Shown: positions 8,124 to 13,725 of the stretch, in pieces | Layout of the letters: every line of letters starts with the position of its first letter | Position numbering within the stretch: position 1 is the first letter of the stretch | From: Escherichia coli | Lineage (GTDB): Bacteria > Pseudomonadota > Gammaproteobacteria > Enterobacterales > Enterobacteriaceae | DNA: 64,000 nucleotides | Assembly (NCBI RefSeq): GCF_030013595.1 | Contig: NZ_CP122768.1 | Reading direction: 5' to 3' (one strand) | Notes under the pieces: generated by a model | What the model saw: only the letters and a program-made list of their open reading frames with translations | What the model was told of the DNA's origin: nothing | Databases searched by the model: none | Position numbers and translations under genes: made by a program

Positions 8124-9485
8124 GTGGAAAAAGAAAATATCACCTTCGATCCGCGTTCTTCATTTACTCCATCTTCATCGGCAGATATTCCCGTGCCACC
8201 AGATGGATTAGTTCAACGCAGTACCCGAATTAAACGCATTCAAACCACCGCCATGTTGTTATTATTTTTTGCGGCGGTAATCAATTATCTCGACCGCAGT
8301 TCGCTGTCGGTAGCAAATTTAACGATTCGTGAAGAATTGGGATTAAGTGCCACCGAAATCGGCGCTTTGCTCTCCGTGTTTTCACTCGCTTACGGGATTG
8401 CGCAACTTCCTTGCGGCCCACTATTGGATCGTAAAGGCCCACGCCTGATGCTGGGACTGGGGATGTTCTTCTGGTCACTGTTCCAGGCCATGTCTGGCAT
8501 GGTGCACAGCTTTACGCAGTTCGTGTTGGTGCGTATTGGTATGGGGATTGGTGAAGCGCCGATGAACCCATGCGGTGTAAAAGTCATTAACGACTGGTTC
8601 AACATCAAAGAGCGCGGACGCCCGATGGGCTTCTTCAACGCAGCTTCTACCATTGGCGTTGCCGTAAGCCCACCGATTCTTGCGGCGATGATGCTGGTGA
8701 TGGGCTGGCGCGGGATGTTTATTACCATTGGTGTACTGGGGATTTTTCTCGCCATCGGCTGGTATATGCTCTATCGCAACCGCGAGCACGTAGAACTGAC
8801 TGCCGTTGAACAAGCTTATCTCAATGCAGGTAGCGTCAATGCCCGCCGAGATCCGCTCAGTTTTGCCGAATGGCGCAGCCTGTTCCGTAACCGCACAATG
8901 TGGGGAATGATGCTCGGATTCAGTGGCATCAACTACACTGCGTGGCTGTATCTGGCCTGGCTTCCTGGTTACCTGCAAACAGCCTATAACCTGGATTTAA
9001 AAAGCACAGGATTGATGGCGGCTATCCCTTTCCTGTTTGGGGCTGCCGGGATGCTGGTCAACGGTTACGTTACCGACTGGCTGGTCAAAGGGGGAATGGC
9101 TCCGATTAAAAGCCGTAAGATCTGCATTATTGCCGGGATGTTCTGTTCTGCCGCCTTTACGCTGGTCGTACCGCAAGCGACAACATCCATGACGGCGGTT
9201 CTGCTGATTGGCATGGCACTGTTCTGTATTCACTTTGCCGGAACATCCTGCTGGGGCTTGATCCACGTCGCAGTTGCTTCTCGCATGACTGCATCGGTGG
9301 GCAGTATCCAGAACTTTGCCAGCTTCATCTGCGCCTCTTTCGCGCCGATCATTACTGGTTTTATTGTTGATACCACCCACTCATTCCGTCTGGCACTAAT
9401 CATCTGCGGTTGCGTCACCGCAGCGGGGGCACTGGCGTACATCTTCCTGGTTCGTCAGCCGATCAACGACCCGCGTAAAGATTAA
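8124..9485 (+). CDS. lgoT: MFS transporter, L-galactonate:H+ symporter
   Basis: 453-aa ORF (GTG start), 12-TM MFS-like hydrophobicity; synteny with lgoR. Confidence 0.85.
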   Translation: MEKENITFDPRSSFTPSSSADIPVPPDGLVQRSTRIKRIQTTAMLLLFFAAVINYLDRSSLSVANLTIREELGLSATEIGALLSVFSLAYGIAQLPCGPLLDRKGPRLMLGLGMFFWSLFQAMSGMVHSFTQFVLVRIGMGIGEAPMNPCGVKVINDWFNIKERGRPMGFFNAASTIGVAVSPPILAAMMLVMGWRGMFITIGVLGIFLAIGWYMLYRNREHVELTAVEQAYLNAGSVNARRDPLSFAEWRSLFRNRTMWGMMLGFSGINYTAWLYLAWLPGYLQTAYNLDLKSTGLMAAIPFLFGAAGMLVNGYVTDWLVKGGMAPIKSRKICIIAGMFCSAAFTLVVPQATTSMTAVLLIGMALFCIHFAGTSCWGLIHVAVASRMTASVGSIQNFASFICASFAPIITGFIVDTTHSFRLALIICGCVTAAGALAYIFLVRQPINDPRKD

Positions 9486-9493
9486 ACTCCCTA

Positions 9494-9528
9494 TGCCCGA
9501 TAACATTTTGCTTATCGGGCATTTTTAT
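9494..9528 (+). terminator. rho-independent terminator after lgoT
   Basis: hairpin atgcccgataa / ttatcgggcat followed by ttttta. Confidence 0.6.
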
Positions 9529-9533
9529 GGCGA

Positions 9534-11198
9534 TTAAAACGTTTCCCAGTTCTCCCCGCTATCTGCCACGGCCATTTTACGCGGCGTAGCTGGCGTCACG
9601 GTTTTTACTACAGCCGATGTTTCACGCTGCTGTTGCTGCTGTTGCTGAATCCGGAACACTGCCACAGCTTCGGTCAGGCGACTGGCCTGCTCTTCCAGCG
9701 CGGCAGCGGCGGCGGCAGATTCTTCCACCAGCGCGGCGTTCTGTTGAGTTACCCGGTCCATCTCAGCAACCGCTAATCCAACCTGATCGATACCACGGCT
9801 CTGCTCATCAGAAGCAGAAGCAATTTCGCCCATAATGTCCGTCACGCGGGTCACGGCACTGACAATCTCCGCCATTGTTTCCCCTGCGCTTTCGACCAGC
9901 GTAGAGCCAACATCTACTTTCCCCACCGAGTCTTCAATCAGGCTTTTAATTTCACGAGCCGCCTGAGCGCTGCGCTGGGCCAGATTACGCACTTCACCCG
10001 CGACCACCGCAAAACCGCGCCCTTGCTCACCCGCGCGCGCTGCTTCAACCGCCGCGTTCAAAGCCAGAATATTGGTCTGGAAGGCAATGCCGTCAATTAC
10101 GCTGATAATATCGGCGATTTTCTGCGAACTGGTGGAGATATCGCGCATAGTCTGCACCACGTTATCTACCACTTTGCCGCCGCGTTGCGCCGTTTCGGAA
10201 GCACTTAACGCCAGGTGGCTGGCCTGACGCGCATTTTCGGCGTTCTGCTTCACCGTTGCGGTCAGTTGCTCCATGCTGGCTGCCGTCTCTTCCAGCGAAG
10301 CGGCCTGTTGCTCGGTGCGCGAAGAGAGATCGTTATTGCCGGTGGCGATTTCGCTGGCACCGCTATAGATGGCATTGGCCCCGTTGCGCACATCACCGAC
10401 GGTACGCATCAGCTCTCCCTGCATATGGCGCAAACTCTCTGCCAGTTGCCCCATCTCATTAGAGCCATCCACCTCAATCGGTTTCACCAGATCGCCGCCT
10501 GCAATATGACGAATGCTGTCAATCAGGCGATTCATTGGCGCTACCAACGAGGCTTTAATACCGAACCAGACGGCGAAGATGACCGCCAGTACGACGATCA
10601 TCACGCCCACCAGAATCCACATCGCCTGGCTGTAGGAGGCATTATTATCGCTGACGGCGATATCATAGAGCCGATCGTTTTGCTCCATGTAAGCCACATA
10701 CTGCTTCTCGAAACCGTCCTGATATCCCTGGGTTGGCTGATCAAAGAACTCGTTGATTTTGCCTGCACCTAACAGTTGGATCAGCTCCGCCAGCGCATTG
10801 TGATAAATATCGTAATTACGTTTGATCTCTGCCGCTGCGGCGGTGCTCTGACGCGGGTCACGCGGCAACGCTTCGTAATCCGCCCAGTTTTTTTCCGCCT
10901 GTTTCAGCGAAATACTGGCACTCTGCATTAGCTCAGCAACGGTTGAACCGCTACCAATATTATTCTGATCCATCATGTAGCGGATACCCGCGCGGTTGAG
11001 GGTGTTACGCGTCTGCAACAACGCAACCCAGCTGCCATTCAGCGTGGATTGCTGCTGGCGAATGGTTTGTAAAACAGTGAAATTTTCTTTGTCATTCTTT
11101 AAGGCATTAAAGAACAGACCGCCTGATGTCAGTTGTAAAAGGCCAAAAACGGCCAAAACCAGCAGTAAGCTGGTCACAATTTTGATACGTTTTAACAT
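9534..11198 (-). CDS. tsr: methyl-accepting chemotaxis protein I (serine chemoreceptor)
   Basis: 554-aa ORF with HAMP, methylation helices and C-terminal NWETF pentapeptide; poly-Q tract near the C-terminus. Confidence 0.95.
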
Positions 11199-11228
11199 GG
11201 TTTCTCTTTCCTGTGGACCGATGCAAGA

Positions 11229-11255
11229 TTTTCGGCCTGGAAAGGAAAAACTTTA
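11229..11255 (-). promoter_or_regulatory. sigma-28 (FliA)-type promoter upstream of tsr
   Basis: minus-strand TAAAGTTT, 11-nt spacer, GCCGAAAA, read directly; matches the class III flagellar promoter consensus TAAAGTTT-N11-GCCGATAA. Confidence 0.5.
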
Positions 11256-11341
11256 TGAATATCCCGCGGAGATTACGCCGAGTAATTTTATTCACACTCT
11301 GAATTTAAAAAACCATTATTTACATAAATTATTCACAATAT

Positions 11342-11367
11342 AAATATGTGATATGAATCACATATTT
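11342..11367. promoter_or_regulatory. CRP-binding site in the btsT upstream region
   Basis: perfect palindrome aaatatGTGATatgaaTCACAtattt (TGTGA-N6-TCACA core at 11347..11362). Confidence 0.55.
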
Positions 11368-11390
11368 ATCGTCACTTAAACGACGCCTTT

Positions 11391-11418
11391 GCCGCTCAAC
11401 CGCAAAACTGACCGCTTA
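11391..11418 (+). promoter_or_regulatory. putative BtsR (YehT, LytTR-type) direct-repeat operator
   Basis: direct repeats GCCGCTCA and ACCGCTTA 12 nt apart, resembling the ACC(G/A)CT(C/T)A repeats reported for the yjiY promoter. Confidence 0.4.
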
Positions 11419-11574
11419 CATCCCTAAAATAACCACTCAGTTATTTACCTTACTTTACGCGCGCGTAACTCTGGCAACATCACTGCAGGATAGCGGTCAA
11501 TTTACCTCCTCAAACGCAACGCAAACCTAGAACGGCTTCGGCCAACTATTAATCAATACATGCCAGGTTTTACT

Positions 11575-13725
11575 ATGGATACTAAAAAGATATTCAAGCA
11601 CATACCCTGGGTGATTCTCGGAATCATCGGTGCATTCTGCCTCGCGGTAGTTGCATTACGTCGGGGGGAGCACGTCAGCGCCCTGTGGATCGTGGTCGCC
11701 TCTGTGTCGGTGTATCTGGTGGCTTATCGCTACTACAGTCTGTACATCGCCCAGAAGGTAATGAAACTCGACCCCACGCGCGCGACGCCTGCGGTTATTA
11801 ACAACGACGGTCTGAACTATGTTCCGACCAACCGTTACGTGTTGTTTGGTCACCACTTCGCCGCTATCGCCGGTGCTGGTCCGCTGGTTGGTCCGGTGCT
11901 CGCCGCGCAGATGGGCTACCTGCCTGGCACGCTGTGGCTGCTGGCGGGGGTAGTACTGGCCGGTGCGGTTCAGGACTTTATGGTGCTGTTTATCTCCTCT
12001 CGCCGTAACGGCGCATCTCTCGGTGAGATGATCAAAGAAGAGATGGGACCAGTACCGGGGACTATCGCGCTGTTTGGCTGTTTCTTAATCATGATCATCA
12101 TCCTCGCCGTTCTGGCGCTGATTGTGGTTAAAGCCCTGGCCGAAAGTCCGTGGGGTGTCTTCACCGTTTGCTCAACCGTACCAATTGCGCTGTTTATGGG
12201 TATCTACATGCGCTTTATCCGTCCGGGGCGTGTGGGTGAAGTCTCTGTCATTGGTATCGTGCTGCTGGTTGCCTCTATCTACTTCGGTGGCGTGATTGCT
12301 CACGATCCGTACTGGGGTCCGGCACTGACCTTTAAAGACACCACCATTACCTTCGCGCTGATTGGCTATGCGTTTGTTTCCGCACTGCTGCCGGTGTGGC
12401 TGATCCTCGCACCGCGCGACTATCTGGCAACCTTCCTGAAAATCGGTGTTATCGTCGGCCTGGCGCTGGGTATCGTGGTGCTGAACCCGGAACTGAAAAT
12501 GCCTGCGATGACCCAGTACATTGACGGTACTGGCCCGCTGTGGAAAGGCGCTCTGTTCCCGTTCCTGTTCATCACCATCGCCTGTGGTGCGGTATCTGGC
12601 TTCCACGCACTGATCTCTTCCGGTACGACGCCGAAACTGCTGGCTAATGAAACCGACGCGCGTTTCATTGGCTACGGCGCAATGCTGATGGAGTCCTTCG
12701 TGGCGATTATGGCGCTGGTTGCAGCGTCCATCATCGAACCGGGTCTTTACTTCGCGATGAACACCCCGCCTGCGGGCCTTGGCATCACCATGCCTAACCT
12801 GCATGAAATGGGTGGCGAGAACGCGCCGATCATCATGGCGCAGTTGAAAGACGTTACCGCACACGCGGCGGCGACCGTCAGCTCCTGGGGCTTCGTGATT
12901 TCGCCAGAGCAGATCCTGCAAACCGCGAAAGACATTGGTGAGCCTTCTGTCCTGAACCGTGCAGGTGGTGCGCCGACACTGGCGGTAGGTATCGCTCACG
13001 TGTTCCACAAAGTGCTGCCGATGGCTGACATGGGCTTCTGGTATCACTTCGGTATTCTGTTCGAAGCCCTGTTCATCCTGACCGCGCTGGATGCCGGTAC
13101 CCGTTCTGGCCGCTTTATGCTGCAAGACCTGCTGGGTAACTTCATCCCGTTCCTGAAAAAAACCGACTCTCTGGTTGCTGGTATCATCGGTACTGCGGGC
13201 TGTGTGGGTCTGTGGGGCTACCTGCTGTATCAGGGCGTGGTCGATCCGCTGGGCGGCGTTAAGAGCCTGTGGCCGCTGTTCGGTATCTCCAACCAGATGC
13301 TGGCCGCCGTGGCGCTGGTACTGGGTACCGTTGTGCTGATTAAGATGAAGCGCACCCAATACATCTGGGTAACTGTTGTTCCGGCTGTATGGCTGCTTAT
13401 CTGCACCACCTGGGCGCTGGGCCTGAAACTGTTCAGTACCAACCCGCAGATGGAAGGCTTCTTCTACATGGCAAGCCAGTACAAAGAGAAGATTGCTAAC
13501 GGTACTGACCTGACGGCGCAGCAGATTGCCAACATGAACCACATCGTTGTGAATAACTACACCAACGCAGGTCTGAGTATTCTGTTCCTGATCGTGGTGT
13601 ACAGCATCATCTTCTATGGTTTCAAAACCTGGCTTGCGGTGCGTAACAGCGACAAACGTACTGACAAAGAAACACCGTACGTTCCAATCCCGGAAGGCGG
13701 CGTGAAGATCTCTTCGCACCACTAA
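11575..13725 (+). CDS. btsT: pyruvate/H+ symporter, CstA family
   Basis: ORF 11560..13725; start MDTKKIF at 11575 gives 716 aa; polytopic membrane protein. Confidence 0.9.
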   Translation: MDTKKIFKHIPWVILGIIGAFCLAVVALRRGEHVSALWIVVASVSVYLVAYRYYSLYIAQKVMKLDPTRATPAVINNDGLNYVPTNRYVLFGHHFAAIAGAGPLVGPVLAAQMGYLPGTLWLLAGVVLAGAVQDFMVLFISSRRNGASLGEMIKEEMGPVPGTIALFGCFLIMIIILAVLALIVVKALAESPWGVFTVCSTVPIALFMGIYMRFIRPGRVGEVSVIGIVLLVASIYFGGVIAHDPYWGPALTFKDTTITFALIGYAFVSALLPVWLILAPRDYLATFLKIGVIVGLALGIVVLNPELKMPAMTQYIDGTGPLWKGALFPFLFITIACGAVSGFHALISSGTTPKLLANETDARFIGYGAMLMESFVAIMALVAASIIEPGLYFAMNTPPAGLGITMPNLHEMGGENAPIIMAQLKDVTAHAAATVSSWGFVISPEQILQTAKDIGEPSVLNRAGGAPTLAVGIAHVFHKVLPMADMGFWYHFGILFEALFILTALDAGTRSGRFMLQDLLGNFIPFLKKTDSLVAGIIGTAGCVGLWGYLLYQGVVDPLGGVKSLWPLFGISNQMLAAVALVLGTVVLIKMKRTQYIWVTVVPAVWLLICTTWALGLKLFSTNPQMEGFFYMASQYKEKIANGTDLTAQQIANMNHIVVNNYTNAGLSILFLIVVYSIIFYGFKTWLAVRNSDKRTDKETPYVPIPEGGVKISSHH

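Follow-up and report, generated by a model that had tools for sequence, protein, structure and literature searches.

A conserved sigma-28-dependent class 3 promoter upstream of the serine chemoreceptor gene tsr in Escherichia coli

In the 64-kb stretch of Escherichia coli DNA analyzed here (hereafter the window), the serine chemoreceptor gene tsr occupies positions 9534–11198 of the minus strand, as a 554-residue open reading frame opened by the ATG at 11198. A 701-bp region of this locus matches 5389 of the 5426 complete E. coli genomes and is 100% identical to E. coli chromosomes including that of strain MEI003, where tsr is annotated with btsT as its divergent neighbor. The RefSeq annotation of the identical region places tsr on the minus strand, btsT (formerly yjiY) divergently on the plus strand and lgoT downstream of tsr as its convergent neighbor. 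The Tsr protein of the window is identical to that of K-12 at 547 of 554 positions (99%). It is 554 residues long versus 551 in K-12, the only length difference being a glutamine tract in the C-terminal linker (around codons 518–524), which counts seven residues (Q7) here and four (Q4) in K-12; besides this tract, there are four substitutions relative to K-12. The btsT open reading frame that begins at the ATG at 11560 (plus strand) would encode 721 residues; RefSeq BtsT has 716 residues (2151 nt), and its start would therefore lie 15 nt further in, at 11575 instead of 11560. Two features stand out in the DNA between the two genes. One is a perfect CRP core, TGTGATTCATATCACA, at 11362–11347, which is palindromic and can be read on either strand. 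The other, upstream of btsT at about 11398–11430 (plus strand), is a direct repeat, GCCGCTCA ... ACCGCTTA, whose copies start 20 bp apart and which we take to resemble the YehT/BtsR (LytTR-type) binding repeat of the yjiY promoter.

The tsr promoter region, read on the minus strand, is attcaTAAAGTTTttcctttccagGCCGAAAAtcttgcatcggtccacaggaaagagaaaccATG. Its parts follow one another in the order ATTCA, TAAAGTTT, TTCCTTTCCAG, GCCGAAAA, TCTTGCATCGGTCCACAGGAAAGAGAAACC and ATG, and the 27 bp at 11229–11255 (minus strand) have the organization of a sigma-28 promoter: (i) the -35 element TAAAGTTT (11255–11248) is identical to the consensus at eight of eight positions, including the TAAA core; (ii) the spacer TTCCTTTCCAG (11247–11237) is 11 nt long; (iii) the -10 element GCCGAAAA (11236–11229) agrees with GCCGATAA at seven of eight positions, with an intact GCCGA core and, at position 6, an A in place of the consensus T. 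A sequence-only reading of this DNA had described two boxes on the minus strand at 11229–11255, 11 nt apart and ending about 30 nt upstream of the tsr start codon. Its coordinates, strand and spacing prove exact on reading the sequence, and the distance from the end of the -10 box to the ATG at 11198 is exactly 30 nt (11228–11199).

We scanned both strands of the whole window with TAAAGTTT-N11-GCCGATAA. The tsr site agrees with this query at 15 of 16 positions and is the sole match when up to three mismatches are allowed. At this threshold, a match is in itself unremarkable, because 0.62 matches are expected by chance in a window of this size and at least one occurs in 45 of 100 shuffled versions. 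With at most one mismatch, as at tsr, there is no match in any of 100 dinucleotide-preserving shuffles of the window.

Conservation of the site was assessed in 80 orthologous loci from at least 18 genera, which were retrieved with the N-terminal 200 residues of Tsr as a query; the genera include Escherichia, Citrobacter, Salmonella, Enterobacter, Leclercia, Lelliottia, Kluyvera, Buttiauxella, Cedecea, Trabulsiella, Franconibacter, Siccibacter, Pseudocitrobacter and Hafnia, among others. In each locus, the 200 nt upstream of the ATG were searched for the best match to the motif, with spacers of 10–12 nt allowed. The best match reaches 15/16 in 63 loci, 14/16 in 13 and 13/16 in the remaining four. 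Its spacer is 11 nt long in all 80 loci, despite a variable sequence, and its end lies 28–35 nt from the ATG, again in all 80. The -35 box is unchanged in 76 of these loci and carries a single substitution in the other four, its columns being 96–100% conserved among the 78 distinct orthologous sequences. As for the -10 box, its GCCGA is invariant (80/80), and its position 6 is mostly A (78%) or C, not the consensus T. When the sequences are aligned on the motif, the information content per column amounts to 1.96 bits in the -35 box, 1.69 bits in the -10 box and 0.81 bits in the spacer, compared to 0.24 bits in the 40 nt upstream of the motif and 0.64 bits downstream. Anchoring the alignment on the best match raises the apparent conservation of the boxes somewhat. 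This bias is far too small to explain what is observed, as indicated by two controls: in shuffled upstream regions, the most frequent best score is 10 and the highest is 13, obtained in only 4 of 2000 cases, and on the opposite strand of the genuine upstream regions the best scores peak at 10. Altogether, the tsr site combines the -35 and -10 elements, the 11-nt spacing and the placement of a sigma-28 class 3 promoter with a match better than chance and with purifying selection. As a side observation, a tsr gene of the enterobacterial type (82% identity), preceded by the same sigma-28 promoter, is present on contig CACSKA010000015.1, labeled ‘Chryseobacterium sp. 18061’; this assembly is probably mislabeled or contaminated.

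Within E. coli, the DNA upstream of the promoter is far from uniform. A 111-nt query spanning 11300–11190 finds a match in 5192 of 5426 E. coli genomes, but this match covers at least 80% of the query in only 2756 of them. In the remaining genomes, the similarity starts at query positions 42–45, i.e. at positions 11259–11256 of the window, 1–4 nt upstream of the -35 box. A haplotype junction thus adjoins the -35 box (11256–11259, minus strand) in about half of the complete E. coli genomes. Apart from the arrangement of the window, tsr is preceded in one haplotype by hpaR, which ends the hpa (4-hydroxyphenylacetate) cluster, and in another, found in an O157 strain and in strain 6EVA, by a gene for a hypothetical protein of 180 residues located between btsT and tsr. 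The three upstream haplotypes are unrelated to one another, and both boxes are kept in all of them. In an alignment of five E. coli sequences, the two boxes and their 11-nt spacing are invariant and the sequences further upstream are unrelated; the O157-type haplotype has several substitutions in the spacer but intact boxes. The upstream neighbor of tsr varies across species as well: the adjacent gene is a divergent btsT in 12 loci and hpaR in 14, a hypothetical gene in a few and something else in most. The genomes with hpaR next to tsr include several of Enterobacter, Leclercia and Lelliottia, so that the hpaR–tsr arrangement is not confined to E. coli. Since all the DNA upstream of the -35 box has proved replaceable in nature, the tsr promoter appears to be self-sufficient, with no need of an upstream activator site.

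The linkage of tsr expression to flagella has been textbook knowledge on E. coli for decades, and the sigma-28 promoter of tsr is already known and experimentally characterized. Sigma-F-dependent transcription of tsr was reportedly described by Kundu in 1997, as cited by Fitzgerald et al. All the experiments considered below were carried out in K-12, a strain distinct from that of the window but with an identical promoter-to-ATG sequence; the window and K-12 MG1655 are identical over a segment that begins 5 nt before the -35 box and runs to the end of the ATG. The FliA ChIP-seq peak assigned to tsr has a FAT score of 94, among the strongest of the published table (Fitzgerald 2014, PMC4183435), and the 28-nt motif derived for it, TAAAGTTTTTCCTTTCCAGGCCGAAAAT, is identical to the sequence of the window (PMC4183435). 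In genomic SELEX with the RpoF holoenzyme alone, a peak was found at 4589632, in the yjiY/tsr spacer (Shimada 2017, PMC5493296); in NC_000913.2 coordinates, this position falls within the motif. Hollands et al. counted tsr as one of eight well-characterized sigma-28 operons and marked the -35 and -10 elements of ptsr on these very two boxes in their Fig. S2 (Hollands 2010, PMC2859248). Expression follows binding: tsr RNA dropped from 630 in motile MG1655 to 9 upon deletion of fliA, a difference of about 70-fold flagged as significant (PMC4183435), and in another study tsr was 5.4-fold down in a fliA mutant and 3.1-fold up upon induction of sigma-F (Zhao 2007, PMC1935009). A preprint on Salmonella FliA contains nothing specific to the tsr promoter.

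The rare and conserved match in the sequence, on the one hand, and the published FliA binding, fliA dependence and binding by the holoenzyme alone in K-12, on the other, lead us to conclude that 11229–11255 (minus strand) is almost certainly the sigma-28 (FliA, sigma-F)-dependent class 3 promoter of E. coli tsr. The sequence-only reading, which had proposed a class III flagellar promoter for this chemoreceptor gene and suggested examining tsr expression in a fliA mutant, is thereby supported: the site matches at 15/16 positions, agrees with the K-12 literature and is kept in 80 of 80 orthologous loci, and tsr is strongly dependent on fliA.

The position of the transcription start can be narrowed down from the K-12 literature. 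The supplements of Kim 2012, Ettwiller 2016 and Mendoza-Vargas 2009 contain no single-nucleotide start for tsr. According to Hollands et al., transcription of tsr from the sigma-28 promoter starts 132.5 bp downstream of the CRP site in K-12 (Hollands 2010, PMC2859248). In K-12 coordinates, the CRP core TGTGATTCATATCACA spans 4591492–4591507 and the -10 box ends at 4591626; a CRP site at -132.5 therefore puts +1 at C 4591632, 6 nt past the -10 box, which corresponds to position 11223 of the window. Transcription would thus start within 11221–11224 (minus strand), most likely at C 11223 (6 nt past the -10 box) or at A 11222 (7 nt past it). The window is 1 nt shorter than K-12 between the CRP site and the tsr promoter, so that the CRP site lies here at about -131.5/-132.5. 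The predicted 5' untranslated region (11199–11223, minus strand) would be about 24–25 nt long; it contains the Shine-Dalgarno-like sequence AGGAAAGAG and, from TCGG to ATG, is identical in all five aligned E. coli sequences.

Based on these elements, the promoter would work as follows. RNA polymerase carrying FliA binds both boxes, TAAAGTTT at -35 and GCCGAAAA at -10, which lie a constant 11 nt apart; it opens the DNA and would initiate 6–7 nt past the -10 box (around 11223/11222), the product being a tsr mRNA with a 24–25-nt leader. FliA is encoded by a class 2, FlhDC-dependent gene, and FlgM keeps it inactive as long as the hook-basal body is unfinished. As FliA is released from FlgM only upon completion of this structure, expression of tsr should be restricted to late flagellar assembly, alongside that of the flagellin, motor and chemotaxis genes; this timing by FlgM is what the established flagellar cascade of enterobacteria (summarized in PMC4183435) predicts. 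The promoter accounts for the co-expression of the major serine/energy-taxis receptor with flagella.

With respect to known promoters, the closest counterpart is ptsr of K-12 itself (PMC4183435, PMC2859248), which has the same promoter sequence, the same gene and the same divergent btsT. There is no difference in the promoter; the loci differ in that the CRP site lies 1 nt closer to the promoter in the window, and in that Tsr has Q7 there instead of Q4. The promoters ptar (TAAAGTTT-N10/11-GCCGATAA), pfliC, pmotA and pflgM are, like ptsr, dependent on FliA and built of two blocks with 8-mer boxes, the -35 boxes of tar and tsr being identical. Compared to canonical class 3 promoters, tsr has GCCGAAAA as its -10 element, with A for T at position 6, a position occupied by A or C in most orthologues.

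Three alternative readings of the region were weighed. According to the first, a sigma-70 promoter located further upstream contributes substantially to tsr transcription, the sigma-28 site being one of two promoters. Two weak sigma-70-like sites are indeed present on the tsr strand, at 11357–11328 and 11344–11315, each with 9 of 12 matching positions. However, the region as a whole holds four such sites, compared to 2.5 ± 1.6 in shuffled sequences, which is no excess; moreover, both sites overlap the CRP/btsT control region, which about half of the E. coli genomes lack. Finally, tsr RNA drops roughly 70-fold in the absence of FliA, so that a second promoter could contribute little in the conditions of that experiment (PMC4183435). 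We therefore consider a substantial sigma-70 contribution to be very unlikely.

The second alternative places tsr under a sigma-28 promoter activated by CRP, as at aer and trg, with CRP acting from the perfect site TGTGATTCATATCACA. The tsr promoter resembles those of aer and trg (PMC2859248) in that it is a sigma-28 promoter of a chemoreceptor/aerotaxis gene located outside the main flagellar regions, with a perfect CRP core upstream on the same intergenic fragment. Unlike at tsr, however, the CRP site of aer and trg is centered at -49.5 and is required (PMC2859248), whereas the center of the site considered here lies about 131.5–132.5 bp upstream of the tsr start. Hollands et al. observed very tight binding of CRP to the tsr–btsT fragment but, citing unpublished data, reported no detectable effect of CRP on tsr expression (Hollands 2010, PMC2859248). 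Thus, neither a CRP site at -49.5 nor CRP-dependent expression, the two marks of the aer/trg type, is found at tsr. The distribution of the site points the same way. Defining a CRP-like site as a sequence with at most one mismatch in TGTGA-N6-TCACA, no more than 300 nt from the tsr ATG, we examined 85 loci: such a site is present in all 12 cross-species loci with an adjacent btsT and in the two E. coli loci of that arrangement, and in none of the 71 remaining loci within this distance. CRP-like sites are thus restricted to loci in which tsr has btsT as its divergent neighbor, and the E. coli haplotypes with hpaR or the hypothetical gene upstream keep the tsr promoter without having a CRP site. 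Since the site co-occurs with btsT, since btsT (yjiY) is known to be regulated by cAMP/CRP (PMC5431176), and given the distance of about 130 bp and the lack of a CRP effect on tsr, we assign the CRP site to the control of btsT and not of tsr; activation of tsr by CRP is highly improbable.

The third alternative, namely that the sigma-28 match arose by chance in an AT-rich intergenic region and that tsr is transcribed from some other promoter, could appeal only to the loose threshold of three mismatches and is effectively refuted, as the actual site has a single mismatch, is kept in every orthologous locus at a fixed position relative to the ATG despite diverged flanks, and is the exact sequence to which the ChIP-seq and fliA-deletion RNA-seq data point (PMC4183435).

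Returning to the sigma-28 class 3 promoter, its evolutionary setting suggests a further, tentative idea. In E. coli, homology breaks 1–4 bp upstream of the -35 box, and across genera the neighbors of tsr change repeatedly while the two boxes, their spacing and their position relative to the ATG remain fixed. It is conceivable, although somewhat doubtful, that the tsr promoter is a minimal, fully portable module of about 57–60 bp, extending from the -35 box to the ATG, which has been carried along with tsr through repeated rearrangements; under the same proposal, the conserved departure from the consensus at position 6 of the -10 box could have been selected because it sets the promoter at a defined, sub-maximal strength and so tunes the stoichiometry of the receptors. 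If true, the portable module would be an evolutionary footnote to a known promoter and would bring no new mechanism. What the present analysis adds to earlier work is the breadth of the conservation, the finding that haplotype junctions coincide with the upstream limit of the -35 element, and the attribution of the CRP site to btsT on phylogenetic grounds. Beyond correct annotation, the significance is small; a compact conserved promoter and a CRP site attributed to btsT are nevertheless useful for the automatic annotation of intergenic regions and for the design of reporter fusions.

Two minor observations concern the flanks of tsr. An Rfam scan of 9300–11700 for structured RNAs returned only a sub-threshold Pistol hit (20.4 bits versus a gathering threshold of 34.5, E = 0.88), which we attribute to chance. 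At the other end of the gene, between the convergent lgoT and tsr, the sequence AAAGATTAAACTCCCTATGCCCGATAAC (9477–9504, plus strand) is the counterpart, with two mismatches, of a weak FliA ChIP-seq site described as ‘tsr/yjiZ convergent’ with a FAT score of 3 (Fitzgerald 2014, PMC4183435). This sequence runs across the stop codon of lgoT (9485) and into a hairpin at 9493–9522, and its orientation is such that it would drive transcription antisense into the 3' end of tsr.
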